Part shown: in pieces, positions 3,201 through 49,800 of the stretch
Position numbering within the stretch: the stretch's first letter is position 1
How the letters are laid out: each line of letters starts with the position of its first letter
Virus genome (UHGV): UHGV-0016284
Length of the DNA stretch: 55,548 bases
Origin: a virus
Reading direction: 5' to 3' (one strand)
Made by a program: the position numbers and the translations under genes
The notes under the pieces: generated by a model
Database searches by the model: none
What the model saw: only the letters and a program-made list of their open reading frames with translations
Told to the model about the DNA's origin: nothing

Positions 3201-5950
3201 GTATTGACAACGTTATCGCTGAAGAGAAAAAAGCAACGGCTGAATCACTGAAAACCATCACGGCAGAAATGAACACGATGGATTCCAACCTTAAAGGTCA
3301 GATCTCCAGTGTGGAACGCGCAGTGGCTGACGAGGCTAGTGCCCGCGCTGAAGCTATTAACGGTGTGAACGCCTCAATAAGCAATCTCGACAAGAAAACG
3401 GATGCCAGCGTCAATAGGCTTGATCAGGCTATTGCAGATGAAACGAACGCCCGCACACAGGCGGTCAGTGACGTTAACGCAAGTATCTCGGTACTTGATA
3501 AGAAAACTGACGCCAGCGTTAAACGCCTGGATCAGGCAATCGCTGACGAAACCAGCGCAAGAACCGAAGCTATCAGTGGCGTGAACGCATCAATTTCAAC
3601 GCTTGATAGCAAAGTGGAAAGCAATATAACGCGCATAGATAAAGCTATTGCAGATGAAACGCAGGCGCGTACAGACGCAATAAGCGGCGTCAAAGCGAGC
3701 ATTAACACACTTGAAGGCAACACCAATTCAGAAGTTAAACGTCTGGATCAGGCAATCGCTGACGAGGCCAGTGCCCGCACACAGGCGGTCAGTGATGTAA
3801 AAGCATCAGTAAGCAACCTTGAAAGCAAAACTGACGCCAGCGTTAAACGCCTGGATAAAGCTATTGCAGACGAAACAAGCGCACGCAGCGAAGCTATTAG
3901 TGGGGTAAATGCCTCAGTATCAGCGCTCGACAAGAAAACCGATTCAAGCATAAGCCGCCTTGATAAAGCCATTGCGGATGAAACAAGCGCGAGAACCGAA
4001 GCCATCAACGGTGTGAATGCGTCAATTTCCACACTCGACGGCAAGGTTACAAGTAACGTTAGCCGCCTTGATAAAGCGATTGCAGACGAAACTAAGGCAC
4101 GCACTGACGCCATCAGCAGCGTTAATGCAAGTATCAGTACGCTTGAAAGCAACACTGAATCAGAAGTAAGTAGACTCGACCAGGCAATCGCTGACGAGGC
4201 CAGTGCCCGCGCACAGGCCGTTAGCGGCGTGAAGGCATCAATAGACAGCCTTGATAAGAAAACAGATGCCAGCGTTTCCCGCCTTGACAAAGCAATATCA
4301 GACGAAACGAAGGCAAGAAGCGACGCAATAACAGAGGTTAAAGCAGACTTAACAACGCTTGAGAACAGCACAAACGCCAGCGTTAAGCGTCTTGATCAGG
4401 CAATTGCCGATGAATCAAGCGCCCGCGCTCAGGCAATATCAGGCCTCAGCGCAAATCTTGGCACTGTTGAAAATAATGTTGGCAAAAACAGCGACGAAAT
4501 AAATCAGGCAAAAGCAAGCCTGCAAAACGCATCTATTGCACTTATCAATAACTCAATCGCTCAAACCAACACGCGTGTTACTCTTTCAGCCCAATACAAG
4601 AAAGGAATCAGAGAAACCAACGCGAAAATTGACCGTATTGACAACGTTATCGCTGAAGAGAAAAAAGCAACGGCTGAAGCCATTAGCGGTGTAAACGCAT
4701 CGATCACTAATCTTGATAAGAAGACTGAAGCAAGCGTAAACCGTCTTGATCAGGCAATTGCTGACGAAACAAGCGCCAGAGGACAAGCTATCAGCGAAGT
4801 TAGCGCAAGTGTCAGCACGCTTGATAATAAAGTGACAAGCAACGTCACCAGGATGGACAAAGCCATCGCCGACGAAAAAAAAGCACGCGCGGACGCAATA
4901 AGCGGCCTTAGCGCATCGCTTACCAGTACGATCAACTCAAAAGTATCTGAAGTGTCGACGGCGCTCTCTACGCATGAGGAATCAAGCGCGGAAAAATTTA
5001 GCCAGATCTCAGCGTCTTTCGAATCAGTAAACTCAAGTATTACAGAATGGTCGCAGACAATGGCTACGGCAGACGAGGCGTTGTCAACGAAAATTGATCA
5101 GCTAACAGTGACCGTTAACGGGAACAAGACGGCAATAGAGACGACATCTAAAGCGTTAACCGACTTTAGGGGTAATGTTGATGCGACATATTCAATCAAG
5201 CTCGCCACAGATAGCAATGGCGTAAAATACGCTACAGGTATGTCGCTTGGCCTTACTGGTGACGGCACTAACTTTCAGTCGCAGTGTATTTTCCTTGTTG
5301 ATCGCTTTATGTTAATGACGGCGGCAAACGGCGCATATACATCGCCCTTCTATGTCACTAACGGCGCAATGTATGTGAAAGAGGCATTTATTAAGGATGC
5401 ATCAATAGGGACAGCTAAAATTGCAGATGCCTCCATTACTATGGCTAAAATTGTCAATGAAATTAAATCAGCAAACTTCGTCCCCGGTTCCAATGGTTGG
5501 AGGATAACACAAAGCGGCGCATCAGAATTTAACAACGTTGTTGTAAGGGGTGAAATACATGCAGACAGCGGCAAGTTTACCGGTTCACTTGAGGCGAAAA
5601 CCTTTATCGGTGATGTTGCAAACATGTACACAGGTTCTGACGTTAGCACGTTAAGGGATGGTGAACTAGAAAAAGTAATAACATACAATGACACATCTGA
5701 CGCAGCGCATAGCCGACATATCTGCGTTATGGCTAACGTTAAGGGTTTTGGTGGTTGCACAATAACAATTGGCGGTTCATCAAAAGGTTTAGCACTGGAT
5801 GGCACGGAGCGCCTTGTTATGCATTCAGCAGCAGTAACCAGCAGGGGCGTTACAGTTAAAATTAAGGTATCTGCTCAAAATGACAAGGGGGCTTATATAA
5901 ATTCGCCGACAGTCATAGTGTCGCGCGGTTCTGGTTCATTCTCAGGATAA
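206..5950 (+). CDS. J: host-specificity / central tail fibre protein, lambda J-like, with inserted coiled-coil repeat stalk
   Basis: N-terminal ~800 aa align by eye with lambda J (TPTLLNDNLYHKQFYRVLDILSEGPIYGPV; FDIRIRRITADSNSDLLQNDTRWSSYSEIID; YCDQLVDDGYGGLEPRMTLNAY; FGCTSRGQAHRAGKWLIET). C-terminal ~350 aa also J-like. Between them lies a ~650-aa Ala/Asp/Glu-rich repeat region absent from lambda J. Confidence 0.9.
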   Translation: MSSGGGKAKTPTLLNDNLYHKQFYRVLDILSEGPIYGPVNQKAPLNNVMLNDTPVTDANGNTSIPGISIAWRNGTADQSPINGFNAIESTVIVNAKVTHDTPIIRTVSDPNVTRVRLNLGVDALVQSDDKGNQYNTSVMLMVDVKPSLSSTWSLIKDIHIGPGKQSGEYLEAHIIKAPDEKPFDIRIRRITADSNSDLLQNDTRWSSYSEIIDDNLSYPHTAVAGAVIDHDQYTDTPTRTYHLRGLIVDVPDNYNTETRTYSGLWLGGFKKAYTNNPAWIFRYLVKNERFGLARHAGYIDVDDGALYVLSQYCDQLVDDGYGGLEPRMTLNAYITEQMSARDLLDNIAGMFRGIALWDGQRLTVMIDAPQDPIATITNASVVDGAFTRSSLPLAECYNAVIVSWTDPENGWEQSKEYVADDELIARDGYNETTLEAFGCTSRGQAHRAGKWLIETAKREPSKFTFKMARDAIHFTPGDIIEILDNNRAGARLGGRIVANNGRVITVDKVDSEYITPGDTISLLDSDGKFKKHQITGVSGNKITLASAPAWIRNGTVFAVSTNAAKPVLCRITSVAETENNSVYTIEAAQHDPHKQAVVDNGAIFEVNNDTLNHFRVPNIENLKVLNIGSETVQCRATWETLTTTHRLTFEIRVYNSAGAVVKSYETTNYSYDFYGIDAGTYSLGIRGRNDTGMKGAESIVDLVIGAPAAPVGVNWVPGVFQATVYPISRTTLTTDTSYEFYYSGETQITDPASVTTKAQYTGRGHQWTFGGMNTGHTYYVYVRTRNAFGVSDFVEASGKPTENFDEISDYVMKDVMGSEQFKEMIGDIKDLGDRTDVIEGVAEELKTATDNLKTTTDNLTNVTDDLRTETDNLTSITDDLRTETDNLTNITEDLRTDTDNLITETGTIKADTDTLKKETEDLYKKVKENADDIGQHESRIDLLEVSSEKVGSELAQAKASLQNASLALINNSLAQTNTRVTLTAQYKKGRTETKAEIDRIDNVIAEEKKATAESLKTITAEMNTMDSNLKGQISSVERAVADEASARAEAINGVNASISNLDKKTDASVNRLDQAIADETNARTQAVSDVNASISVLDKKTDASVKRLDQAIADETSARTEAISGVNASISTLDSKVESNITRIDKAIADETQARTDAISGVKASINTLEGNTNSEVKRLDQAIADEASARTQAVSDVKASVSNLESKTDASVKRLDKAIADETSARSEAISGVNASVSALDKKTDSSISRLDKAIADETSARTEAINGVNASISTLDGKVTSNVSRLDKAIADETKARTDAISSVNASISTLESNTESEVSRLDQAIADEASARAQAVSGVKASIDSLDKKTDASVSRLDKAISDETKARSDAITEVKADLTTLENSTNASVKRLDQAIADESSARAQAISGLSANLGTVENNVGKNSDEINQAKASLQNASIALINNSIAQTNTRVTLSAQYKKGIRETNAKIDRIDNVIAEEKKATAEAISGVNASITNLDKKTEASVNRLDQAIADETSARGQAISEVSASVSTLDNKVTSNVTRMDKAIADEKKARADAISGLSASLTSTINSKVSEVSTALSTHEESSAEKFSQISASFESVNSSITEWSQTMATADEALSTKIDQLTVTVNGNKTAIETTSKALTDFRGNVDATYSIKLATDSNGVKYATGMSLGLTGDGTNFQSQCIFLVDRFMLMTAANGAYTSPFYVTNGAMYVKEAFIKDASIGTAKIADASITMAKIVNEIKSANFVPGSNGWRITQSGASEFNNVVVRGEIHADSGKFTGSLEAKTFIGDVANMYTGSDVSTLRDGELEKVITYNDTSDAAHSRHICVMANVKGFGGCTITIGGSSKGLALDGTERLVMHSAAVTSRGVTVKIKVSAQNDKGAYINSPTVIVSRGSGSFSG
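2745..2960 (+). repeat. short in-frame tandem repeats (about 30-40 bp units) encoding TDNLxxTTDDLRTETDNLT motifs inside J
   Basis: Repeated peptide TDDLRTETDNLT(S/N)IT and matching DNA units (actgacgatttaaggactgaaacagacaacctta...). The antisense ORF 2632..2940 is a by-product of this periodicity. Confidence 0.6.
3194..3244 (+). repeat. 51-bp perfect direct repeat, copy 1 (within J)
   Basis: attgaccgtattgacaacgttatcgctgaagagaaaaaagcaacggctgaa is identical at 3194-3244 and 4628-4678. An additional 23-bp identity (gcaaaagcaagcctgcaaaacgc) lies about 125 bp upstream of each copy. Confidence 0.85.
3310..4450 (+). repeat. about ten tandem 108-bp (36-aa) coding repeats, predicted coiled-coil stalk of J
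   Basis: Protein repeat KKTDASV(K/N)RLDQAIADETSARTEAISGVNASIS(T/N)LD recurs about 10 times with a 36-residue period. Boundaries approximate. Confidence 0.8.
4628..4678 (+). repeat. 51-bp perfect direct repeat, copy 2 (within J)
   Basis: Identical to 3194-3244. Spacing 1434 bp = 478 codons, so recombination between copies would be in frame. Confidence 0.85.
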
Positions 5951-5952
5951 AC

Positions 5953-5984
5953 AAAAACCCCGCTTCGCGCGGGGTTTTCTTTTA
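5953..5984. terminator. bidirectional rho-independent terminator between J and the antisense lipoprotein gene
   Basis: Hairpin ccccgc-ttcgc-gcgggg followed by ttttctttt on the plus strand and preceded by an A-run (T-run on the minus strand). Confidence 0.7.
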
Positions 5985-6230
5985 GTAGTTAGCTACACAG
6001 TTAGAAGGGCTACCGATGCGGCGCATGTTGTGATCGAGTTCATGACACCATTGACCAGTATAAGGCAGTTTTTCAGTGTCATAGACAAGATGACCTTCAC
6101 CATCATAGACAACATCTTGTGGAATTACTCCGCTATTCGGCAGGTTATGCAATGCGGCCTCTTTGTCAACAGCGCAACCAGTAAGAGCTACAGCCGCAGC
6201 GAACAAAACCACTTTGAACATGTTTTTCAT
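5982..6230 (-). CDS. small lipoprotein (signal peptide plus lipobox LTGC), antisense moron next to J
   Basis: MKNMFKVVLFAAAVALTGC...: hydrophobic signal peptide with L-T-G-C lipobox; 82 aa with two further Cys; AGGA ribosome-binding site 8 nt upstream. Confidence 0.65.
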   Translation of the reverse strand: MKNMFKVVLFAAAVALTGCAVDKEAALHNLPNSGVIPQDVVYDGEGHLVYDTEKLPYTGQWCHELDHNMRRIGSPSNCVANY

Positions 6231-6339
6231 TTTTAATCCTCATTCTCGTTCGTTCATCCGGTTCATCCGGTGGCTTAAATATCAGACAAAAGCACATTTC
6301 GTATATTGATATAAATCAACAAATACATTTTGTGTAAGC

Positions 6340-6373
6340 AGAAAATGCAACACAGATCACAAAATGGTAGAAT
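6340..6373 (+). promoter_or_regulatory. candidate extended -10 promoter for the side tail fibre gene
   Basis: TGgTAGAAT at 6365-6373 (TGn plus near-consensus -10); AT-rich upstream; GGAG ribosome-binding site before the ATG at 6407. Confidence 0.3.
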
Positions 6374-6406
6374 TATTCCGTTAATTAACAAAATGGAGTC
6401 ATCGAG

Positions 6407-14142: not shown

Positions 14143-15558
14143 TTAAAAAGATGTGTTATTCTGATTGTTTCGTTGGTTAAAACGGCTTGTGCGATGATTC
14201 ATTGACTGAATACACGCGGCGGCTGCGCGAGCCTGGTCGCATGGCAAGATATTACCGTTGTCATCAAACCGCTGGTAAACAGTTCCAGACTTACCATGAC
14301 GGTTTTTGGACACAATGATTTCCATATATTCGCGGGCAACAGACTGTTCGTCGTAATACCCATCGCGGTAAACCATGATGATCCTGTCGGCATCTTGCTC
14401 AAGGTTGCCAGAATCACGAAGATCAGAATTGTTAGGGCGCTTGTTCGGTCGTTCCTCAACGCGGCGTGACAGTTGCGCCAGCGCCAACACTGGTACACGC
14501 AATTCTTTCGCCATCATCTTTAACGACCACGACAATTGCCCAACGGCGAGATCGTGACGTTCGGCCTTAGCCAGCTGCATTAAGCCGATATAGTCAATCA
14601 TTACCATACCCAAATTTGGGTGATCCTGTTTCATGCGTTCCGTTGTTGCGCGTATTTCCTCAACCGTTAACTGCGACGCGTCAACGATCCACACATCAAG
14701 GTTAGCAAGTGCGCTCATACCCTGGCCGACATGCGCCCACCCTTCATCATCAAGTTTTACCGGATTGCGCAGGCAGTCAGTTGATAAATTACCAGCGCCA
14801 GCGATAGCTCGCTCAGTCATCTGATCGAGTGACATTTCAAGAGTGAAGAACAAAACGCCAACCCGCTGATCTTTACTGCCAGGGTAAGGGCGTTCAGCGG
14901 CAGCGCGGGCAATTGTCAGCGCCAACGCAGATTTACCAGACCCAGGGCGTCCGGCGAGAAGTACCAAATCAGTAGCGTTAATGCCGCCTAACATTTCATC
15001 GAGCGGGTCAATACCTGTTTTGATGTTGTCAGAATTAACACCGCATTCCATGCGCTTGCTTAAAACATCCGTATATTCCTGTACCGCATCGCGCAACAAC
15101 ACCGGAATGATCTTGTCTTTCGTTACCTTTAATTTTGAATATCGGGAATCAAAATCCTTCATCGTCTCTTTGACGACCTCAAGCGTACCTGTTTCCAGCT
15201 TGTAACGCATATCGTCGATGAGTTCCAACATCTGCCGCCGCTGGTGCTCTTCACGTAGTAGCTGTGCGTATCCCTTCAGGTTGGCAGCAGACGGGCACGA
15301 TCGCGCCGTTTGCATTAGCGGTACAAAGTTTTCATTGCCAATCTCATCGCCAACCAATAACGCGTCGATAAGATTTCTGTTTCTGGCTTGCGCCCGGATA
15401 ACTTCAAACGCACGTTTATACAGCGGAATCGTGAACACTTCAGGATCAAGCGTGGCGAGAACATCTTGCGCGTTAGGAGTAAGGCCACCCAACAACAGCC
15501 CGCCGATAACTGACGCCTCACGTTCCTGCCGTAGTGAGTTTATTTGCTCAGTTACCAT
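14143..15558 (-). CDS. replicative DNA helicase, DnaB family
   Basis: Walker A GRPGSGKSALALTIA, DnaB-like N-terminal domain, RecA-fold C-terminal half (VMIDYIGLMQ; LAQLSRRVEERPNKRP). Confidence 0.85.
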   Translation of the reverse strand: MVTEQINSLRQEREASVIGGLLLGGLTPNAQDVLATLDPEVFTIPLYKRAFEVIRAQARNRNLIDALLVGDEIGNENFVPLMQTARSCPSAANLKGYAQLLREEHQRRQMLELIDDMRYKLETGTLEVVKETMKDFDSRYSKLKVTKDKIIPVLLRDAVQEYTDVLSKRMECGVNSDNIKTGIDPLDEMLGGINATDLVLLAGRPGSGKSALALTIARAAAERPYPGSKDQRVGVLFFTLEMSLDQMTERAIAGAGNLSTDCLRNPVKLDDEGWAHVGQGMSALANLDVWIVDASQLTVEEIRATTERMKQDHPNLGMVMIDYIGLMQLAKAERHDLAVGQLSWSLKMMAKELRVPVLALAQLSRRVEERPNKRPNNSDLRDSGNLEQDADRIIMVYRDGYYDEQSVAREYMEIIVSKNRHGKSGTVYQRFDDNGNILPCDQARAAAACIQSMNHRTSRFNQRNNQNNTSF

Positions 15559-15576: not shown

Positions 15577-16695
15577 TTACAAAATGGAATATTCAGGGTA
15601 ATAAACAAAGCGCCCTATCTCACCATGATCCGGGCTGTAAATAATCACCGCTGCCAGCCGACGCGACCGCCAGCCGCCATTAGTTGAATATGCGTCTTTG
15701 CCCGCTAACGTTCCGTGGTGTTCGACGATCCCCAATGATGTTTCAACGACAGATTGGTGGTGTAGGTGTCCAGTGTGAGCGTAAACAGCAACCGACTTGC
15801 CGAAATCCTCCCGCCAGTCAGATACGCAAGCCGACAATAAATTTTCTGGCTTTTTGATAGTGTGCCCGTGGTGGTAAGCAAGGAATGTTTTACCGTACTG
15901 CGTGTGGTGGACGATAGCAGGGGACACATCAACAGTTACGCGCGGTTCGTCTTCGTAAAAAGCTGCCAGCGCCGCACGTAGCCAAATCATGCCTGACTGA
16001 TCGTGATTGCCTGATAACACCTGGATTTCAACATCCTTATGATTTAACAACATTTTACCTACCGCCCGCCGGACCGACCGGATCGCCACATAAACAAGTT
16101 TTGCGTAGCGCGAATCACAATCTAGGACGTGATTGCTTGATGGTGTGACTGGTAATAGCCCGTCAGTGTGAAGTAGATCGCCACCGAGAAGCAATACAGC
16201 TTTTTCAGACATCGGCGCAGCGCCTACAGCGTAGTCGAAGAAGTCATTCAACACGCGCTCAGCGATCCCGGTGTCGTAGCTCTCTCCACATTCTGCTCTG
16301 TGAGCAAGCGCCCCGATATGCAGATCAAATACCGGATAAAGGGCCAGGCTTTTTTGGAAATCAATTTCAGGCACTGGCACAGCCTCCGCGCGTGGTATCT
16401 CATCCGTGAAAGCGTCGCGGGCCGCTTCCATTAGCTGTTCCATTTCGTCGCGGTCACGGGCTGTTTTAATCCAGCGCATGATCACATTGCCGTTCTTATC
16501 GACCAGTAACGACTCGCCATTGACGCCAAAACCAGGGGCGCGGCGCGTTGATAATAAACCGCGTTTCGCCAGCTTTGCGCCCAGCCGCTCGACGTTGCGT
16601 TTTGACATACCATATTTTTCAGCGATCTGCTTGTACGTTAAACCGTTGTTATATTCAGCGATCAATTGCTCATCGCTTATCTTTCTTTGTGACAT
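15577..16695 (-). CDS. fusion protein: N-terminal helix-turn-helix plus C-terminal calcineurin-like metallophosphoesterase
   Basis: N-terminus LTYKQIAEKYGMSKRNVERL (HTH). C-terminal half carries the ordered metallophosphoesterase motifs DLHIG, GGDLLHTDG, GNHD, HHGH, GHLHH. Confidence 0.6.
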   Translation of the reverse strand: MSQRKISDEQLIAEYNNGLTYKQIAEKYGMSKRNVERLGAKLAKRGLLSTRRAPGFGVNGESLLVDKNGNVIMRWIKTARDRDEMEQLMEAARDAFTDEIPRAEAVPVPEIDFQKSLALYPVFDLHIGALAHRAECGESYDTGIAERVLNDFFDYAVGAAPMSEKAVLLLGGDLLHTDGLLPVTPSSNHVLDCDSRYAKLVYVAIRSVRRAVGKMLLNHKDVEIQVLSGNHDQSGMIWLRAALAAFYEDEPRVTVDVSPAIVHHTQYGKTFLAYHHGHTIKKPENLLSACVSDWREDFGKSVAVYAHTGHLHHQSVVETSLGIVEHHGTLAGKDAYSTNGGWRSRRLAAVIIYSPDHGEIGRFVYYPEYSIL

Positions 16696-16729: not shown

Positions 16730-17398
16730 TTAGTTACAAGTTAAAAGCTCAGTGATCCATACTTGTCCTTTAGCAGTGAATACAGCCTGCTCATATCCAT
16801 CGTGAGTTACCCTCATTTCACCGTAGCCCTCATCAATAAACCACTGACTAAATACACGGCGGCGACAGCGAAGATCGTAAACACCAACAGCCGAAAGTTT
16901 TCTGTTTAATTTTACGGCTGACATTCCCAGCGGTTTAGCAACCTCTGAAGCCGTTCGGTGCATATCGTTTTTGACTATCGCGTCACATACAGCCGCTTTT
17001 GGCGCAAGTTCCTTATTAACCAGTGCAAGCCGTTCTTTTTCCTCAGCAAGATCGGCAGCAAGGCGCAACGCTTCGCTTAATGTTTGAGGAATTGCAGGGG
17101 CGTTTTGCTGTACCCGTTTTTCAAGTTCCTGCCAGCGGTCGATGATGCGAGCACGTAACTCAACGCTATAGCCAGATACAACCAGCAAAGAGTCACGCTT
17201 AGTTAAAAGCCATTCCCTCTGTGTTTGATTGTTGTATCCTTTGTAAGTTACTGATTTGCTTGATTCCCCCAAATTTGGGGCAATGACGTCAATGTCTCTC
17301 AATATGTGATCGTGCCGTTTACCAGTTAGCTTGGCGATCTCACGAGAAGACATTGTTAATACTTCGTTCGCCCCATTAAGCGCCATTAATTCAGACAT
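16730..17398 (-). CDS. Rha-family phage regulatory protein / antirepressor-like
   Basis: N-terminus ...TMSSREIAKLTGKRHDHILRDI is the Rha-family signature; C-terminal coiled-coil/KilA-C-like region. Confidence 0.6.
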   Translation of the reverse strand: MSELMALNGANEVLTMSSREIAKLTGKRHDHILRDIDVIAPNLGESSKSVTYKGYNNQTQREWLLTKRDSLLVVSGYSVELRARIIDRWQELEKRVQQNAPAIPQTLSEALRLAADLAEEKERLALVNKELAPKAAVCDAIVKNDMHRTASEVAKPLGMSAVKLNRKLSAVGVYDLRCRRRVFSQWFIDEGYGEMRVTHDGYEQAVFTAKGQVWITELLTCN

Positions 17399-17479: not shown

Positions 17480-19297
17480 TCAATGGTGAAATAAACCTTT
17501 AACCTTGCTAAAGAATCCGTCTTCTGGCTTTTTATCGAGCCGGTACAGTAATTCTTTTACTTTGTCTTGCAATGCCATTATCAGCTTACGATAACGTTCA
17601 TGATTGCGCTGTTGACGCTGTTTCAGGTCGCCCATGTACCGTTTTTGTGCTGCCCGGCGTTGCATGTTGCGAGCAATCAGTTTGTTATATCTGTCTGATA
17701 GTTGGTTATAGCCAGATTGTAAGATGTTCACATTATTTTGCAGTTCCAGTTTATCATCCTCAAGTTCTGCCACTTTAAGCTGATAGCCCTTGATAACTAG
17801 AGCCTTGTTGCCTGCCTCCTGTTGTTGCACTTTGATTATTTCCTTCGCTTCTGTCAGATCTGCACGAAGGTCGTTGATTGTTTGTTTGTCTGCCGCAGCT
17901 TTCGCTTTTGCGTCTTCGTCATTTGCAGCGTTGAGTTTTTGGCGTAGTTCGCAATTAGTTTTTACCAGGTTGTCGCGCTCACTTTCCAGCTTCTGGCGTT
18001 TACCCTGTTCGTCACCAAATGCCTTATTCGCCTCGCTGTATTGGTGTTTCCAGTAGTCAACGCGTTGCTGATAGTTGTCGCGATCTTCTCTCGCTATGTT
18101 GAGCACTCCATGTAATTCCTTGATTTGTCCTTCCAGCGTTTTTACCTGGCATTTAAGATCTCCCACCTGTTTGCTATCTGTTTGCTGCGCAATAGCCGCG
18201 CTGATATGGTTGTCTTTAAATTTGCGAAAGGCCACCGATAAATCAACCCGATCCTTTTCCGCCCCTATACGTGCAACTATCATCCCTGCTATCTCAAACG
18301 GCGCATAGCCTTTTTTGATCTGCATGTCACAGTGTTCAGTGCAATAGATGTAACCAGGAAGTTTATTCAGGCTTTCGATGCGGTGGCGCAATTCGTCATC
18401 GTCAACACCATAAGCCGAAGCAATGTCCATCAGATTGATTTCATCTGTGTCATTAACGCGAACATCGTAACCGTGGAATTTAAACGCTCTAGGTAACTTC
18501 TGTTCCGGCGGTTCAGTGTTAATTTCTATTTGCTTCATTTCTTCACCTTCATAATAACGCTGTTTAATGTGTTCCGCTTCCTCTGGTGAGATATAATCAG
18601 GGAAGTTATTTATTTGTTTGCCGAAATACTTGATCTCACCCTGGATGCGCGCCTTTATTGCGTCGTTGATGTTGTTGAAACAACCAAGATTGTGAGTCAT
18701 TCCATCAGCTGAAATATACGCCCTCCATTTATTAGTCACTTTGTCCAAATAAATACCTTTGATTCCGCTATCTCCAAAAGGCTGACGTTTTACGTTAATC
18801 TCACTGAGTGTGATTAATTTCAGGTTTTCAATTTTCACGCATGAGTCATCAGCGTTTTCTATTACATAACCATCAGGAATAGGGCCGTTAAACATTTCCC
18901 ACACAATGCGATGCAAGTAATATTGGGCGTGATTTATTTTCAACCTAAATTTTTTAGCTACTTTTGCTCTGTCTTCACTCCCGCGAATAATATCGCCAGG
19001 TTTGATACGATTTTTCCCCACTCCCCGCGCCACCTTACTGACCAGATAACCATCAGGATGATAATCAAATAATTCAGGCCAGTTTTCCGCACACTGGCTG
19101 CAATCAGCGTACTGAATATCGCCAGCTTCCACCGCTGTTATTTCCTTCCAATAGCCACCGGCCACCATGCGTACAAACTCGCTTTCTTTACCCCAATGAT
19201 TCCACGTTTGATATTTACGCTTCCGCATAAACACCATTCCTTCATCAATTTTTGCAAACAATTTACTTCCTCTTATCGATATAAAATATCTAGACAT
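17480..19297 (-). CDS. multidomain HNH endonuclease (HNH + AP2-like + Bro-N/KilA-N-like) with long C-terminal coiled coil
   Basis: YLHRIVWEMFNGPIPDGYVIEN.DD..VKIENLKLIT (HNH_3-like); IKGIYLDKVTNKWRAYISADGMTHNLGCFNNINDAIKAR (AP2-like); FKFHGYDVRV..EINLMDIASAYGV (Bro-N-like); about 230 aa heptad-rich tail. Start set to ATG at 19297 (GAGG ribosome-binding site); track start 19345 is TTG. Confidence 0.6.
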   Translation of the reverse strand: MSRYFISIRGSKLFAKIDEGMVFMRKRKYQTWNHWGKESEFVRMVAGGYWKEITAVEAGDIQYADCSQCAENWPELFDYHPDGYLVSKVARGVGKNRIKPGDIIRGSEDRAKVAKKFRLKINHAQYYLHRIVWEMFNGPIPDGYVIENADDSCVKIENLKLITLSEINVKRQPFGDSGIKGIYLDKVTNKWRAYISADGMTHNLGCFNNINDAIKARIQGEIKYFGKQINNFPDYISPEEAEHIKQRYYEGEEMKQIEINTEPPEQKLPRAFKFHGYDVRVNDTDEINLMDIASAYGVDDDELRHRIESLNKLPGYIYCTEHCDMQIKKGYAPFEIAGMIVARIGAEKDRVDLSVAFRKFKDNHISAAIAQQTDSKQVGDLKCQVKTLEGQIKELHGVLNIAREDRDNYQQRVDYWKHQYSEANKAFGDEQGKRQKLESERDNLVKTNCELRQKLNAANDEDAKAKAAADKQTINDLRADLTEAKEIIKVQQQEAGNKALVIKGYQLKVAELEDDKLELQNNVNILQSGYNQLSDRYNKLIARNMQRRAAQKRYMGDLKQRQQRNHERYRKLIMALQDKVKELLYRLDKKPEDGFFSKVKGLFHH

Positions 19298-19464
19298 TAT
19301 TAATACCTCGCATTTAGTAATTTGCTTTTGCATGGATACAATCAATAAAACGCGCTACAACGCAAAAATCCCACCGCGTAACCCATTTGCACAGGTTGCA
19401 GTGTCTTATTGCGTCAGAGGCGCTTTCAGGTGGCTAATTTTTGATTTACAGACTGGTATGAAGG

Positions 19465-19703: not shown

Positions 19704-20750
19704 TTATGGGAAATTCCGTGTCTTGCGGAGCGTTTCGGGCTTCAGCAGAAAATCTATATCAGCCCGCCAGCCAGTGTTGTTGTTGCCAAAGTAGAAGTCG
19801 GGGGCATGCTTGTTGAAGTACTCGAAGTAGTTGATGAATGCTGTGATGTTTTTCTCCTTCATGCTGTCAGCCAGTCTATGTATCTTTCTCTCCAGATCGC
19901 GATCAAGCTCTGCATACGGCAGTGAGTCGCCGAATGTGTTGTTGTAGGCTTCTACTACCTCAGCAGCATCAATAACCGCGCCTTTTTGTTTCCATTGATT
20001 TGCCTTATCAAGTTTCTCAGCAAACAGCGTCTTCCTGCATATATTGAGTGGCGACAACTCGCCAGGTTCTTTCCTCCACACGCTCGCCACCCAATCAATG
20101 ACCAGTTTGATATCGTCAGGTGTAAAGCCGTTTGCTAGCAGCGTAACGAAAGGGCGGCTATCCCTGCTTTTCCCGCCGAGTCTGTCGCGGAAGTAGCTAA
20201 GCATATCCATTGCCTTAATCTGGTTTTGCGAAAGACCATTATCAACCACACTTTCCCCCTGTAGGGGGATTATAGGGGGTATATCTTTTTCTTTTTTTAC
20301 CTTGTTATTATTTATATCTACCTTGTTAGAGTCCCCCTCTAGGGACTTTGACTTGGCAAATGAAAGTCCCCCTCTAGGGACTTTGACTTCTTCTGCGGGG
20401 ATGGGTAAAAGTCCCCCTCTAGGGACTTTGACTTCTTCTGCGAGAATGAAGTCTTCAATGCTCATATCTTCGTTTTTTTGTACGACCTCCTTAAACTTTT
20501 CACTGAACCTGTAGATGTTCGAGGTGTTATATCTTCTTTTTCTGGATAGTACCCCGTATCTTTCCAGGACTTTTATTGCTGCAATGACGGAATCCCTTTT
20601 TATGTGACACCTTCTGGCTAGCGTGTCTATGCTCGGGTAGCATTGGTTTTTATCGTGGTCAGCATACCAGGCCAAAGTAATGAGGACGTAACTTACATTG
20701 CGATCATCAATAAGAAGCCTGAACGCGCGATCCTGTAGTTCGTATGCCAT
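19704..20750 (-). CDS. replication initiator (lambda O-like organisation, origin iterons inside the gene)
   Basis: N-terminal HTH-like domain (PSIDTLARRCHIKRDSVIAAIKVLERYGVL); central linker EEVKVPRGGLLPIPAEEVKVPRGGL encoded by DNA iterons; first long gene of the leftward early operon. Confidence 0.6.
   Translation of the reverse strand: MAYELQDRAFRLLIDDRNVSYVLITLAWYADHDKNQCYPSIDTLARRCHIKRDSVIAAIKVLERYGVLSRKRRYNTSNIYRFSEKFKEVVQKNEDMSIEDFILAEEVKVPRGGLLPIPAEEVKVPRGGLSFAKSKSLEGDSNKVDINNNKVKKEKDIPPIIPLQGESVVDNGLSQNQIKAMDMLSYFRDRLGGKSRDSRPFVTLLANGFTPDDIKLVIDWVASVWRKEPGELSPLNICRKTLFAEKLDKANQWKQKGAVIDAAEVVEAYNNTFGDSLPYAELDRDLERKIHRLADSMKEKNITAFINYFEYFNKHAPDFYFGNNNTGWRADIDFLLKPETLRKTRNFP
20285..20440. 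repeat. origin-like iterons (3 copies of a 25-bp unit) with adjacent AT-rich tract
   Basis: agtccccctctagggactttgactt at 20330-20354, 20365-20389 and 20410-20434, each with an internal inverted repeat (agtccc/gggact); AT-rich ctttttctttttttaccttgttattatttatatc upstream. Confidence 0.55.
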
Positions 20751-20758
20751 ACATCACC

Positions 20759-21163
20759 TCAAAACGGCGCTGTTCTCTGTTGGAATTTATCCAGAAAATC
20801 ATCGCTACCATCAAGTTCTAATGCGTAAAACATATCGCAATCACCCTTGCCTGGCTTATCATGCTTGATGGCTATGATGTCCTTAATTTCTTTGTCTTTT
20901 ATGTCCTTATATGGCCCGCAAAATACAGGGTGATACGGGAAAACACCTTCGCGTAGTTTTTGGTATAAGTCAGATCTCGTTATTCCGGCCCACCAGGCTA
21001 ATCTAAACAGATTGTCTTCGCGGAACACCACATAGTAAGTGTTGTGGTATTGGCAATCGGCAAGATACATGGCGATCAGCCTGTCTTCCGCTTTCCAGTA
21101 ATAAGTCTTATCGATGATATCCCTTGCTGTAGCAGCAAGATTGATTGAGTCATCGTTAATCAT
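20759..21163 (-). CDS. hypothetical protein (134 aa), first gene of the leftward operon
   Basis: ATG at 21163 preceded by AGGAGA; track version starts at TTG 21241. Not Cro-like in size or sequence. Confidence 0.5.
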   Translation of the reverse strand: MINDDSINLAATARDIIDKTYYWKAEDRLIAMYLADCQYHNTYYVVFREDNLFRLAWWAGITRSDLYQKLREGVFPYHPVFCGPYKDIKDKEIKDIIAIKHDKPGKGDCDMFYALELDGSDDFLDKFQQRTAPF

Positions 21164-21380
21164 TCTTGTGTCTCCTATGGTTAGAGTGAACGCGCGGGCG
21201 GGCATCCCATTAGCATTAGATAGCAGTGACTGACCGCTCAACAGATCCCGCCGTTGCGTGATATTTGTTTTTCGCTTCGCAGCGACACCGGATTTTTAAA
21301 GAGCTTAAGTGGTTGGCCTTTTGTGCTTTCCGTTATCTTTTTTCTTGCATCATTGCAACTATGGCCTTACCTTGTTTGCA

Positions 21381-21425
21381 AGTTTACAGAATGGCGTTGA
21401 CAGGTCAAGGCTTTAAAAATACGTT
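21381..21425. promoter_or_regulatory. divergent overlapping promoters with palindromic -35 region (immunity-region control)
   Basis: Plus strand: TTGACA (21397-21402), 17-bp spacer, TACGTT. Minus strand: TTGACC (complement of 21403-21408), 16-bp spacer, TAAACT (complement of 21381-21386). The two -35 elements form the palindrome TTGACAGGTCAA. Confidence 0.4.
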
Positions 21426-21467
21426 TTGTGACTTGTATCAAACTTTTTTAGGTTATAGGGTAGCGAC

Positions 21468-22115
21468 ATGAAAACAAAATGGTATGACTTAGCAAAACAA
21501 CTCATGCGGGCGCAGGGCATGAGCCAGGATTCATTGGCTGATCTCATGGGGATAACCAAAGGTGGCCTTTCGCACTGGCTGAACGGTCGCCGTGAGCCAA
21601 ATCTTGAAGATATTGCGCGGATTATGCGGGCGCTTGGGCGTCGGCAGTTTACTGTCACACATGACGGGATGGTTATCGATGATTCTGTTTCTAACACTTT
21701 ACCGGGAGCGCCACCGCGTGATTTAGGCAGTTACCCGGTTGTTGACTGGAAGGATGTAGCAAACAATATGGAAGGCATACGCCGATCAACATTGCCACAT
21801 GTTACTACTAACGTTATTTGTTCGGATGATAGTTATTGGCTGGTAGCTAAAGGTGAATCAATGAACGCACCGCAGGGGTTAAGCATCCCTGCCGGTACTA
21901 TGATACTTATTGACCCGCACGCGCCAGCTATTGATGGTAAACTGGTTATAGCTCAACTCGAAGAAGGGCAAATACCGACGTTTAAACAATTGATTATTGA
22001 TGGAGGCCGAAAACTTTTGCGTTCACTGAATCCGTTGTATCCGCCGATCCCTATGAATCCAGAATCAAAAATCATTGGCGTGGTTGTTGATGCGAAGATC
22101 GTAAACCTGCCATAA
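21468..22115 (+). CDS. cI-like repressor (HTH_XRE N-terminus, LexA/S24 autopeptidase C-terminus)
   Basis: N-terminal HTH (MSQDSLADLMGITKGGLSHWLNGRREP); C-terminal S24 fold with GESM (Ser nucleophile) and downstream Lys (TFKQL). Confidence 0.8.
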   Translation: MKTKWYDLAKQLMRAQGMSQDSLADLMGITKGGLSHWLNGRREPNLEDIARIMRALGRRQFTVTHDGMVIDDSVSNTLPGAPPRDLGSYPVVDWKDVANNMEGIRRSTLPHVTTNVICSDDSYWLVAKGESMNAPQGLSIPAGTMILIDPHAPAIDGKLVIAQLEEGQIPTFKQLIIDGGRKLLRSLNPLYPPIPMNPESKIIGVVVDAKIVNLP

Positions 22116-22120
22116 ACATT

Positions 22121-22148
22121 AGCCGCCTGGTGGCGGCTTTTCTTTGTT
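22121..22148 (+). terminator. rho-independent terminator after the repressor gene
   Basis: Hairpin agccgcc-tggt-ggcggct followed by tttctttgtt. Confidence 0.65.
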
Positions 22149-22239
22149 CGAAAAAACACCAAAACGTAAACAGAAAACGCTATTTATTGTTTAAATATCA
22201 ATAGTATATAAAATATTTTAAAAAAGTATACAAAATGGA

Positions 22240-22268
22240 TTGACTCGGTGTTTTACGGGGCGTATATT
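22240..22268 (+). promoter_or_regulatory. strong sigma70-type promoter for the rightward operon
   Basis: TTGACT (22240-22245), 17-bp spacer, TATATT (22263-22268). Confidence 0.55.
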
Positions 22269-22312
22269 GCGAGTCAAAGGAGGTAGCAAGGCAGGGAAAG
22301 GGAAGGTTATTT

Positions 22313-22349
22313 GCTCTTTAACAATCTGGTCAGCCGCTGGAAGTGCGGC
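22313..22349 (+). promoter_or_regulatory. nut-like site: boxA-like sequence plus boxB-like hairpin
   Basis: GCTCTTTAA (22313-22321) resembles boxA (CGCTCTTA); hairpin GCCGC-tggaagt-GCGGC at 22333-22349 resembles boxB. Confidence 0.35.
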
Positions 22350-22406
22350 AATTAACGAAGATGATTTTTTTATTAAGTATCATCAAGGATATACGGAGAT
22401 CAGATT

Positions 22407-22697
22407 ATGAGCGTTACAATCATGTATGGCAAATGTGACAGTAAACTGAATGCCAGGGAACGCAGAAAAATAAAAAGAGAAAACGAAAGAAAATCATCAC
22501 CTGCAATTAATAAAACAGACAATGTGGATAAAGCTATTCGATTTGCAAACGAGGAAAGGTGCAAACCAAATAGCATTAAAGAACGTCGCAAAGGATCAGT
22601 AAAATGGTATATGGAAAATGAAAGCGGCAGCTACTACCACGCAACGCAACCACGCCATTTAGGGGAAAAACCCCTGGATAAAGTCCGCTATCATTAA
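22407..22697 (+). CDS. basic protein with arginine-rich motif, candidate N-like antiterminator
   Basis: First gene after the promoter and nut-like site; KLNARERRKIKRENERK near the N-terminus resembles an arginine-rich RNA-binding motif. Weak assignment. Confidence 0.35.
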   Translation: MSVTIMYGKCDSKLNARERRKIKRENERKSSPAINKTDNVDKAIRFANEERCKPNSIKERRKGSVKWYMENESGSYYHATQPRHLGEKPLDKVRYH

Positions 22698-22727
22698 TAC
22701 AAAATGTAAACATTCGGAGGTGACATT

Positions 22728-22850
22728 ATGGTTATTCAGGCGCTTCAATTCAAACTGGCAGTAGCGGAAATGCTTCATGATGCCGAAATGTGGAGCGCCG
22801 CGAATAAAGCCTTATACGTAGTGTTAACAGCGAAGGAGATTAAAGAGTGA
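22728..22850 (+). CDS. small hypothetical protein (40 aa)
   Basis: ATG at 22728; stop overlaps the erf start (GTGA); below the track cut-off. Confidence 0.25.
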   Translation: MVIQALQFKLAVAEMLHDAEMWSAANKALYVVLTAKEIKE

Positions 22851-23500
22851 AAACAGAGTTACACAAAAAACTGTGGACGATTCAGCAAACGCTGAACGCG
22901 CCGAAAAATCAGCGTAATAATTTTGGTGGATATAATTACAGGTCGGCGGAGGATATTTTAGAGGCGGTTAAACCACTGCTTCAAAATATCACGCTGACTG
23001 TTAGTGATGAAATTGTCCTGATCGGCAATCGCTATTATGTGAAAGCAACGGCTACACTAAGCGACGGCGAGGATGAAATTGCGGTAACTGCTTACGCCAG
23101 GGAAGAAGAAAGCAAGAAGGGCATGGATTGTTCACAGCTAACTGGCGCGACATCAAGTTATGCGCGTAAATACGCGTTGAACGGATTGTTCTGTATTGAT
23201 GATGCGCGAGATCCTGATACTGACGCATACGCTAAGCAGACAGGCCAGCAGCCTCGCCAACAGAAAAACCCACCAAAACAACAAACTAATCAGAAACCAC
23301 AGCAGCAGAAAGCGCCGCCAAATCCTGATGAAGTGTTAGCGCGTTTCTGTGATGCGGCAGCGAAAGCGCCGGACGCTAATAAGTTGCGCGAGATATTCGG
23401 GAAGTGCTGGAAGCTACTTCCTAAAGATTCAGAGCAGCAACAGAAAGCAAAAGACTGTTATGACATTCGCTTAAAAGAGCTTAAAGGGGAGATCAGTTAA
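22847..23500 (+). CDS. erf: Erf-family single-strand annealing recombinase
   Basis: Aligns by eye with P22 Erf: LNAPKNQ.N.FG.Y.YRS.EDILE.VKPLL......SDEIVLIG.RYYVKATAT..DGE......A.AREEE.KKGMD..Q.TGATSSYARKY.LNGLF.IDDA.D.DT. Confidence 0.8.
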   Translation: MKTELHKKLWTIQQTLNAPKNQRNNFGGYNYRSAEDILEAVKPLLQNITLTVSDEIVLIGNRYYVKATATLSDGEDEIAVTAYAREEESKKGMDCSQLTGATSSYARKYALNGLFCIDDARDPDTDAYAKQTGQQPRQQKNPPKQQTNQKPQQQKAPPNPDEVLARFCDAAAKAPDANKLREIFGKCWKLLPKDSEQQQKAKDCYDIRLKELKGEIS

Positions 23501-26120: not shown

Positions 26121-26200
26121 TAAATATACATTTTGTTTTGTGATCGCATGTCCGTTTTGTGAACTGAAATCAAAAGGTTTACGGCGCGGAGGAAAACAAG

Positions 26201-29286: not shown

Positions 29287-29359
29287 ACAAAATGGCGTCA
29301 TTGCGTGATATGGATCACATAATGGCGCTTTTCGCCTTGTTCTGGTGTATCCATTTTGT
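29287..29359. promoter_or_regulatory. nested inverted repeats (TTTACAAAATGG ... GTGATatggATCAC ... CCATTTTGTA)
   Basis: ACAAAATGG at 29287-29295 and its reverse complement at 29351-29359 flank the palindrome gtgatatggatcac; intergenic between the HNH gene and the next ORFs. Confidence 0.3.
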
Positions 29360-29440
29360 ATACTTCAAGCAAACAAAATGCTCTTTAAAAATCCGGCAGC
29401 GCTGAAATGCGTAGAAATCACCTGAAAATGAGAGGGCATT

Positions 29441-49191: not shown

Positions 49192-49551
49192 TTAGTTGAA
49201 ATACGCATCAACTCTGTGGGCCACGTTTACACCATAAGACTCGCCATCATTAAACGCATTTAGTGACGCTTTATTGTTTTTTGCCGCCTCTTTTAATCCA
49301 TTGTACTTGCTATTAAGATCTTTCCATTCAGCGGTTTTTTCTAATACTGGCTTCATTGCGTAATGAATACAGCCAACGTTAAATGGCATTTCCAGATCAC
49401 CATTACCGTCACCATGCTTTATATCGTACAACTGAGCATTATGCGCACATTCACGAAGTATGTATTTTGCGGACGGAGAGTGCTCAGCATTAGCATTAAG
49501 CGCAACTCCTGCAAGTACCGCCACGATTAAGATTTTTGCCAGACTTTTCAT
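49192..49551 (-). CDS. secreted/periplasmic protein (Sec signal peptide), antisense moron
   Basis: MKSLAKILIVAVLAGVALNANA then EHSP...: classic signal peptide with AxA cleavage site; mature ~97 aa with 2 Cys; GGGGTGA ribosome-binding site. Confidence 0.6.
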   Translation of the reverse strand: MKSLAKILIVAVLAGVALNANAEHSPSAKYILRECAHNAQLYDIKHGDGNGDLEMPFNVGCIHYAMKPVLEKTAEWKDLNSKYNGLKEAAKNNKASLNAFNDGESYGVNVAHRVDAYFN

Positions 49552-49729: not shown

Positions 49730-49800
49730 TTTATACAAAATGTGTTCACTGAAGTAAATCCATTTTGTATAAAATAGAGGCATAGATCACATTTTGTATG
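49730..49800. promoter_or_regulatory. inverted/direct repeat cluster and candidate minus-strand promoter upstream of the moron (and of the tape measure gene)
   Basis: ATACAAAATGT (49733-49743), CCATTTTGTAT (49760-49770), ACATTTTGTAT (49788-49798). Minus-strand TTTACT-17-TATAAA promoter (complement of 49753-49758 and 49730-49735). Confidence 0.4.

Follow-up and report, generated by a model that had tools for sequence, protein, structure and literature searches.

The mEpimmI phages are Nus-dependent, non-lambdoid temperate coliphages that form one immunity group, with mEp021, mEp010, mEp013, mEp044, mEp515 and mEp554 as members (Negrete-Mendez et al. 2025, PMC11893012). The subject of this text is the immunity region of the virus genome UHGV-0016284, analysed as a stretch of 55,548 nucleotides (nt) that is called the window from here on. 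The region lies around a cI-like repressor gene at 21468-22115, and by its sequence it belongs to the same group. Its layout is that of phage lambda seen in a mirror, with a gap: neither Cro nor CII can be recognised, and the position of cro is occupied by a gene that differs among relatives.

The six isolates are Escherichia coli phages from Mexico; among human faecal isolates the group is reported to be as abundant as the lambdoid phages, with which it does not recombine (PMC11893012). Its repressor, Rep, combines a Cro/C1 helix-turn-helix (HTH) domain with an S24 domain and is ~96% similar across the group. The catalytic residues are kept, the Ala-Gly cleavage site is missing, and lysogens are not inducible by ultraviolet (UV) light; expressed from a plasmid, the repressor of mEp021 (Rep021) blocks all six isolates (PMC11893012). 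The early antiterminator is Gp17, an N-like protein shown experimentally in mEp021 to act at three sites: nutL precedes the repressor gene, in mEp021 as in the group, nutR1 precedes gp17, and nutR2 is situated a long way downstream. Its residues R17, R19, R20 and R24 are conserved, and R21 is present in 45 of 48 members. Cro and the first leftward gene are not discussed in that work (PMC11893012).

A second point of reference is provided by the Cluster A mycobacteriophages (L5, Bxb1). These use a single repressor and have no Cro analogue, their asymmetric sites of 13-14 bp are dispersed over the genome and oriented with transcription, and there is no divergent transcription of the cI/cro type (PMC6550527). 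A third is a distant relative among the IMG/VR contigs, IMGVR_UViG_2852055501_000007 (here L054), whose repressor is 37% identical to that of the window and starts with the same MKTKWYDLAK. Leftward of its repressor, L054 carries a Cro of 74 amino acids (aa) with an HTH_3 domain (E 2e-14), a Phage_CP76 CII and an HTH_36 initiator; the intergenic region is 105 bp (L054 3170-3500), and between the repressor and cro stand three AGTATACAT repeats.

How does the window compare with these systems? A megablast search with positions 20700-22750 matches only the six mEpimmI isolates and MagusPhagus, at 90-96% identity, and the immunity segment is present in prophages of 35 out of 5,426 complete E. coli genomes. 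Rep is 96% identical to that of mEp021, and residues 1-97 are identical, so that the DNA-binding domain is the same. Gp17 is 93% identical, the three nut sites, the terminator and the promoters occupy the same positions, and gene order agrees on both sides. By these likenesses, the region is best explained as the module for immunity and early control of an mEpimmI (mEp021-like) temperate coliphage, hence of an already known group, with a rare allele in the first leftward slot. Homoimmunity with mEp021 is expected, given the identical DNA-binding domain and control regions that are ~90-96% identical. What sets the window apart from the other members is the content of that slot, a 134-aa orphan followed by a divergent initiator where the others have an 81-aa (gp14) or 84-aa winged-helix protein. 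It also lacks an insert of ~212 bp with gp16, has K21 for R21 in Gp17, and carries a TTGACA hexamer that none of the other aligned loci has. The elements of the module are as follows.

20759-21163, minus strand: the slot gene, encoding a 134-aa orphan protein in the position of lambda cro; ATG at 21163 behind AGGAG.
21172-21176, minus strand: AGGAG, the conserved ribosome-binding site of the slot gene; end of the conserved immunity module.
21272-21304, minus strand: nutL, with boxA GCTCTTTAAAAA (21304-21293) and a boxB hairpin UCGCUGCGAAGCGA (21285-21272), called from sequence.
21344-21359, no strand: a 16-bp palindrome, CTTGCA-TCAT-TGCAAC, in the leftward leader, at ~+15 to +30 of the transcript; arms conserved.
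21381-21408, minus strand: leftward early promoter TTGACC-16-TAAACT, 9/12 in the consensus scan and conserved.
21433-21461, plus strand: candidate maintenance promoter of the repressor, TTGTAT-17-TAGGGT, then 6 nt and ATG, proposed from conservation.
21468-22115, plus strand: immunity repressor Rep, cI-like, 215 aa; HTH_3 (E 4.6e-13) and Peptidase_S24 (E 4e-18) in Pfam, phrog_4.
22121-22146, plus strand: intrinsic terminator, a hairpin and T-run after the repressor gene; stem conserved, changes among relatives confined to the loop.
22240-22268, plus strand: rightward early (gp17-operon) promoter TTGACT-17-TATATT, 10/12 in the scan, both hexamers in 45/45 relatives.
22313-22349, plus strand: nutR1, with boxA GCTCTTTAACAA (22313-22324) and a boxB hairpin GCCGCUGGAAGUGCGGC (22333-22349), called from sequence, at the position of the published nutR1 (PMC11893012).
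22407-22697, plus strand: Gp17-type N-like antiterminator, basic, 96 aa; phrog_271 'N-like' (E 8.7e-12).
29381-29420, plus strand: nutR2, with boxA GCTCTTTAAAAATCCGG, identical to the boxA of nutL, then a CGCUGAAAUGCG hairpin.

Conservation was read from an alignment of 50 loci on the leftward side (43 of the 47 IMG/VR loci found with the repressor as query, together with phage, prophage and Logan-assembly loci) and from one of 45 relatives on the rightward side; the content of the slot was counted in 51 loci. The accepted promoters rest on conservation rather than on consensus matches, because promoter-like matches are no commoner in this region than in its shuffles (5 found, 5.5 expected in the consensus scan).

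A preliminary description of the region had listed a rightward cI-like repressor followed by a terminator, a strong promoter, a boxA/boxB-like site and an arginine-rich basic protein, with a divergent leftward promoter, a first leftward gene unlike Cro and replication genes on the leftward transcript. Nearly every element of that list is present; the boxA/boxB-like site is nutR1 at its published mEp021 position, the N-like nature of the basic protein has likewise been published for mEp021, and the terminator is annotated also in mEp021 and mEp010. The exception is a palindromic -35 element said to be shared by the divergent promoters, which is found in 1 of 50 loci. As for the interpretation, the absence of a recognisable Cro stands, and the shared -35 and the idea of a different wiring do not.

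The order of genes and signals is best read against lambda. One side holds, in order, the repressor, terminator, promoter, nut site, N, kil, erf and ssb; the other holds the divergent promoter, nut site, slot gene, initiator and helicase. Read in this way, the layout is the lambda cI-PL-nutL-N and PR-nutR-cro-O-P topology in mirror image and not a new circuit, so that the claim of a switch wired differently from lambda or P22 was overstated. The likeness extends to many details. As in lambda, an S24-type repressor is divergent from an early operon with the replication genes, and the origin lies, probably, inside the initiator gene; the repressor gene is co-oriented with the operon of the N-like antiterminator; boxA/boxB nut sites are found in both early leaders; and kil-like and recombination genes follow N. 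The candidate Rep promoter has a PRM-like arrangement of -10, 6 nt and ATG, and the lambda PRM transcript, with this geometry, is leaderless. Unlike lambda, the window has no cro and no cII, and no tripartite palindromic operators were found in common between its two control regions. The genuine departures from the lambda layout are three: the absence of cro and cII, a third nut site, and a repressor without an Ala-Gly cleavage site. The second and third of these are published traits of the mEpimmI phages, as is their lack of recombination with lambdoid phages (PMC11893012).

The explanation that is favoured here, with a probability of roughly 60%, is that of a lambda-like, mirrored mEpimmI module that does without Cro and CII, in which the gene at the cro position works with replication and Rep acts at sites of the form AGTWTACAAAATGG. 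The Cro gap is made sharper by the finding that the place of cro is an interchangeable slot which goes with the type of replication initiator; the N/nut part has already been published.

Is Cro truly missing? The Cro proteins of L054, lambda, P22 and 434, the small slot proteins of the relatives and one CII were compared by phmmer with the 451 open reading frames (ORFs) of at least 35 aa in the window. Over these 55.5 kb the repressor alone was matched, and no Cro-like or CII-like ORF was found; the Phage_CP76 CII of L054 had no match among the same ORFs. Pfam and PHROG scans of the neighbouring and early ORFs returned no Cro and no CII family, and neither the leaders nor the intergenic regions hold a conserved small ORF. 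Because the distant relative L054 has both genes in the same place, the absence of a recognisable Cro and CII is lineage-specific; on the sequences compared, it is real and a feature of the mEpimmI lineage.

What, then, stands in the place of cro? The similarity of the window to every relative ends at ~21171, where the slot gene has its ribosome-binding site, and loci with four different downstream genes have the leader as far as AGGAG in common. For the same reason a 160-aa version of the slot gene, with a TTG start, was rejected: AGGAG and the ATG at 21163 are common to loci with other genes. The 51 loci divide as follows.

38/51 loci: an 84/85-aa winged-helix protein, followed by an initiator starting 'MKWFKHDSDAN...' (Lin1244-type).
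6/51 loci: an 81-aa winged-helix protein (mEp021 gp14), followed by an initiator starting 'MSMRLMVEVFH...' (HTH_36a).
4/51 loci: the 134-aa protein (the window and three loci fetched with the 134-aa protein as query), followed by an initiator starting 'MAYELQDRAF...' (the second HTH_36 type, HTH_36b).
3/51 loci: no small gene, the initiator directly next (IMG/VR contigs L019, L021 and L047).

The 81-aa and 84-aa proteins are 33% identical to one another, and the latter matches the N-terminal domain of one type of initiator at 37% identity (E 1.7e-16). The initiator of the window (19704-20750, minus strand) has 348 aa and an N-terminal HTH_36 domain (Pfam E 3.6e-13; phrog_428, E 1.2e-32), is separated from the slot gene by 8 nt, and is 35-41% identical to the common type. 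Among the loci compared, the type of slot gene matches the type of initiator N-domain with no exceptions. In the 134-aa type the slot protein (down to 40% identity) and the initiator diverge together, while Rep stays at 90% or above (computed for L058). Isolates of one immunity differ here too: mEp515 has the 84-aa gene with a Lin1244-type initiator, and the other five have the 81-aa gene. Since homoimmune isolates and one conserved module carry different slot alleles, the slot gene, as far as these loci tell, is outside the immunity-specificity unit; and since its type always matches that of the initiator N-domain, it probably belongs to the replication module.

The 134-aa protein itself has no Pfam or PHROG family and no HTH_3 or Cro match, which agrees with the earlier remark that it is unlike Cro. 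The only Pfam hit up to E = 1 is Phage_AlpA over residues 60-76 (E 0.12, below the cut-off). An AlphaFold2 model (predicted local distance difference test score of 80) gives a probable winged-helix DNA-binding core at residues ~25-85 with a C-terminal alpha/beta extension. A Foldseek search with this model in a viral library returned phage 'HTH domain' proteins and 'replication protein O', all at E 0.037 or worse, and hhalign detected no homology to the other slot proteins or to initiator N-domains (probability 3%). The protein is rare: five clusters were found among 5.8 billion proteins, and three representative clusters among 1.8 billion in a search for remote homologues. It occurs in 0 of the 43 IMG/VR loci with a readable slot gene, and its DNA is absent from all 35 complete E. 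coli genomes that carry the immunity region. Divergent homologues, 57% and 40% identical, were found only in this slot; the GC content of the slot gene shows no anomaly.

Could this protein be a functional replacement of Cro, without homology to it? It would then bind the intergenic region, at the 16-bp palindrome 21344-21359 or at copies of the motif described below, and lower transcription first from the Rep promoter and later from its own operon. The position is that of lambda cro, right after a promoter-nut leader; the modelled fold is probably DNA-binding, most relatives also have a small winged-helix protein in the slot, and the leader contains a conserved palindrome. However, the operator region and Rep are ~90-98% conserved, whereas the slot holds three proteins that are unrelated or barely related (33% identity or none), or nothing at all. 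The leader palindrome does not co-vary with the slot allele, and homoimmune isolates carry different alleles. In lambdoid phages cro is known always to change together with cI and the operators, the three forming a single immunity unit. Of the alternatives to the favoured explanation this is the one that fares best, and even so it is unlikely.

If the slot protein does not compete for operators, where does Rep act? No palindromic operator family was found to be shared by the two control regions. What they have in common is only the asymmetric ACARAAYGK, with the extended consensus AGTWTACAAAATGG, in the following copies.

21380-21394, plus strand: copy A, AAGTTTACAGAATGG, over the leftward -10; conserved as AAGTTTACA(A/G/T)AATG(G/T) in 50/50 loci.
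21418-21432, minus strand: copy B, GTCACAAAACGTATT, centred at ~-43 from the candidate repressor start; a C/T variation keeps the motif.
21471-21484, plus strand: copy C, AAAACAAAATGGTA, inside repressor codons 2-6; unchanged in 50/50 loci, though this is coding sequence.
22222-22238, plus strand: copy D, AAAAGTATACAAAATGG, right next to the -35 of the gp17-operon promoter; in 40/45 loci, with an ...ATGT variant in 5/45.

The window has 24 copies of the 9-mer ACARAAYGK where 4.8 would be expected, and 0 of 100 shuffles reach this number. Of the 22 copies at positions 1-53000, 12 are in non-coding DNA, which makes up 7% of that stretch (p = 5e-9). Beyond the immunity region four clusters can be seen.

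6325-6396: between a leftward lipoprotein gene (phrog_12984, 5982-6230) and a tail-fibre gene.
26128-26160: non-coding.
29287-29359: copies at 29287 and 29351 bracket the region just upstream of nutR2.
49735-49797: between a leftward 119-aa ORF (49192-49551) and the tape-measure gene.

Further non-coding copies of the form (AGTWT)ACAAAATG(G/T) are found at 15579, 22699 and 53922. The lipoprotein gene and the 119-aa ORF are accessory insertions within the cluster of tail genes. At 6325-6396, 29287-29359 and 49735-49797 a scan for sigma-70 consensus promoters called none. The repeats between repressor and cro in L054 have a AGTATACA core in common with the motif of the window, and for this reason Rep is favoured as its binder; by sequence, AGTWTACAAAATGG is the best operator candidate.

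The promoter from which Rep itself is made was found by conservation: TAGGGT (21456-21461) and TTG(C/T)(A/G)T (21433-21438) are each kept in 50/50 loci, and the 17-nt spacer in 49/50. It is too weak to reach the calling level of the consensus promoter scan. Rep is probably transcribed from this weak, leaderless promoter at 21433-21461. A CRP-like TGTGA-N6-TCAAA at 21427-21442, spotted by eye, overlaps motif copy B.

The leftward leader also deserves a description. In nutL, boxA is conserved in 50/50 loci and boxB in 47/50, and the hairpin is present in the predicted fold, the stability of which is not above that of shuffles (z = +0.33). The arms of the palindrome, CTTGCA-N4-TGCAA(C/G), are kept in all 50 relatives irrespective of the slot gene; it has no other good match in the window, and the minimum-free-energy fold shows it as a hairpin of 5 bp. 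Its role may be that of a DNA site for a protein or of a 5' RNA hairpin. As a shared palindromic operator, CTTGCA-N4-TGCAAG was rejected, being a single copy with none in the rightward control region. A 68-aa plus-strand ORF at 21265-21471, annotated as a gene in mEp010, was also rejected, since it is interrupted in 33 of 50 relatives.

Leftward of the initiator, the early operon continues with three further genes of interest.

17480-19345, minus strand: an ORF of 621 aa that lies between the initiator and Rha/Ant genes; HNH_3 endonuclease domain, long C-terminal part resembling a coiled coil.
16730-17398, minus strand: a Rha/Ant-type protein (Pfam Phage_pRha E 6.4e-17, ANT E 2e-11).
14143-15558, minus strand: DnaB helicase.

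The initiator and DnaB, both on the minus strand, bear out the statement that the replication genes are on the leftward transcript. Within the initiator gene, at 20328-20448, three internally palindromic copies of A(A/G)AGTCCCCCTCTAGGGACTTTGACTT encode a repeated EEVKVPRGGL peptide; these are probably origin iterons, which would place the origin inside the initiator gene, and in lambda the origin iterons lie inside the O gene. The position of the 621-aa HNH ORF is taken in mEp021 by a 495-aa 'zinc-ribbon' protein, which makes it another variable slot of the leftward operon.

With these elements in hand, the favoured explanation can be told as a sequence of steps. In a lysogen, Rep would shut both early promoters, an effect shown for Rep021 as immunity; repression would be exerted from copy A on the leftward promoter and from copy D on the rightward one, and through copy B Rep may also stimulate the weak promoter of its own gene. 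The rightward operon would run from the promoter at 22240-22268 through nutR1 to Gp17 and on to kil, erf and ssb. The leftward operon would run from the promoter at 21408-21381 through nutL to the slot gene, the initiator with its internal origin, the HNH gene, Rha/Ant, an exonuclease and DnaB. After infection, Gp17 and host Nus factors would carry transcription through terminators from the nut sites, as shown for mEp021. Without Cro, commitment to the lytic course would depend on the Rep promoter being weak as long as no Rep is present, and in some members, this one included, the Rha/Ant antirepressor on the leftward operon may add to this. The 134-aa protein would work together with the replication genes, perhaps at the origin repeats or on expression of the initiator, and would not be a Cro that competes for operators.

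Several points weigh against this explanation. The evidence for this window is from sequence only. The motif was derived from the region itself after the data had been seen, and it is AT-rich, non-palindromic and found in mixed orientations; it could be the site of another factor or a promoter element. Some of its clusters lie beside accessory genes of the tail cluster; lysogens probably express these genes, and one would not expect Rep to repress them. The call of the Rep promoter comes from conservation only, and TAGGGT may alternatively be a weak Shine-Dalgarno sequence, that is, a ribosome-binding site. The match between slot and initiator is explicable by physical linkage alone, as both lie between two conserved flanks where recombination would occur, and the three relatives that have no slot gene are known as metagenomic or prophage contigs, which may not represent viable phages. 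Finally, a non-homologous substitute of Cro would be expected to look just like this, a winged-helix protein that is the first product of the early leftward promoter.

The comparison with Cluster A phages adds another perspective. Here, as there, one finds one repressor, no recognisable Cro and an asymmetric motif, of 14 bp in the window, in many non-coding regions. Unlike the Cluster A system, the window has a repressor of the cI/LexA type with HTH_3 and S24 domains, a divergent early promoter and antitermination dependent on N and Nus; its motif copies are in mixed orientation to transcription, and Rep is only a candidate binder. The window is not of the Cluster A kind, because the sites of those phages follow transcription and their system is without divergent transcription. 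A wider picture can nevertheless be drawn: an N-dependent, lambda-shaped switch with no Cro-type counter-repressor, in which one cI-like repressor acts at asymmetric AGTWTACAAAATGG sites in at least seven non-coding regions, including those at tail-cluster accessory genes and upstream of nutR2, and the gene at the cro position is an exchangeable partner of the initiator. This would be a hybrid of lambda antitermination and Cluster-A-style immunity, and it is put forward tentatively, as a possibility more than an expectation. With L054 the window shares the N-terminus and domains of the repressor, a similar recognition helix, an HTH_36 initiator downstream and the AGTATACA core; it differs from it in the sequence of most of the repressor (37% identity), and L054 in turn has a short 105-bp intergenic region, an HTH_3 Cro and a Phage_CP76 CII, with no nut-containing leader evident.

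A different answer to the question of commitment would be that an antirepressor, and not Cro, throws the switch, with the Rha/Ant protein inactivating Rep non-covalently once early transcription has started. Both the Phage_pRha and the ANT domain are there, homologues stand at the same place in several relatives, and a repressor without an Ala-Gly self-cleavage site, in lysogens that UV does not induce, would suit such a mechanism (PMC11893012). However, no Rha/Ant is annotated in the corresponding stretch of mEp021 or mEp010, so that this is not the general mechanism of the group, and a gene in an operon repressed by Rep could reinforce the decision and not start induction. Because it is not annotated in those two phages, the Rha/Ant gene is taken as an accessory gene that only part of the group carries; its product may be an antirepressor, and as the thrower of the switch it is a less likely candidate still than a replacement of Cro.

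Or is a Cro-like regulator present after all, too small or too divergent to be recognised, as a micro-ORF in a leader or a protein elsewhere in the early operons? Two places come to mind. In 35 of 45 relatives a conserved, GC-rich insert of ~212 bp stands between the gp17-operon promoter and nutR1, and in mEp021 (L001 about 4600-4920) it holds the annotated 37-aa gp16; the insert of mEp021 matches no Rfam family (best E 0.055, far below the gathering score). Moreover, many small early ORFs without assigned function lie downstream of ssb. However, the insert and gp16 are missing from the window (22290-22305) and from nine other relatives, and the searches described above found neither a conserved ORF in either leader nor a window ORF resembling Cro or CII. 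A hidden Cro is therefore very improbable.

There remains the palindromic -35. The leftward promoter is itself well conserved, with its -10 TAAACT in 50/50 loci, its -35 TTGA(C/T)C in 49/50 and its 16-nt spacer in 50/50. The palindrome TTGACAGGTCAA at 21397-21408 is not perfect; it is a 5+2+5 inverted repeat, whose leftward half is this -35 and whose rightward half is the following element.

21397-21402, plus strand: TTGACA, specific to the window, in the 16-nt spacer of the leftward promoter.

Among the 50 loci the rightward hexamer reads TTGACA in the window only, TTTTAA in 27, TTAACA in 5, TTTTTA in 5 and other variants in the rest, the position being the least conserved stretch of the intergenic region; its best -10 candidate, TACGTT at 16 nt, is not acceptable and was not called by the scan. 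For these three reasons the rightward TTGACA is, in the light of the alignment, a chance feature of this genome. The model of the preliminary description, in which RNA polymerase or the repressor chooses between two divergent promoters at one shared palindromic -35, can be dismissed, since an element found in 1 of 50 loci cannot underlie the switch, and the conserved candidate repressor promoter lies 36 bp further right.

The rightward side calls for a few more remarks. The rightward leader folds modestly more stably than shuffles (z = -2.2), and an Rfam-type search of 20600-22900 brought no known RNA family near threshold. A perfect 8-bp inverted repeat, TTGACTCG (22240-22247) and CGAGTCAA (22271-22278), brackets the gp17-operon promoter from its -35 to ~+1; it was seen by eye, and because the right arm varies (CGAATC) in many relatives it is probably without function. 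In the arginine-rich motif of the Gp17 homologue R17, R19, R20 and R24 are present, with K at position 21. Downstream of its gene follow a weak match to Kil, an ERF recombinase and an ORF the size of SSB where the relatives carry SSB. All three nut sites are at syntenic positions in the window, as far as their sequences tell: 21304-21272 (minus strand), 22313-22349 (plus strand) and from 29381 (plus strand). The third is nearly identical to nutL. The stretch from the motif copy to boxA at nutR2 is similar to the start of the leftward leader, which suggests that the nutR2 region is a duplicated promoter-nut unit.

What do these results mean for the mEpimmI phages? For annotation, the label cro should be avoided for the first gene after nutL, and the TTGACA 'palindrome' is not to be marked as a regulatory element. 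For evolution, L054 can serve as an outgroup in tracing the loss of cro and cII, and the gain of a leader with a nut site, in the mEpimmI lineage. Experimental study of these phages has so far been limited to the repressor and the N-like antiterminator, and the slot offers a further subject: the exchangeable gene could reveal a new class of accessory proteins for phage replication initiators. And if the module is truly without Cro, these phages would provide a natural test, in E. coli K-12, of bistability and lytic commitment in a cI-type, N-dependent switch that works without a counter-repressor.

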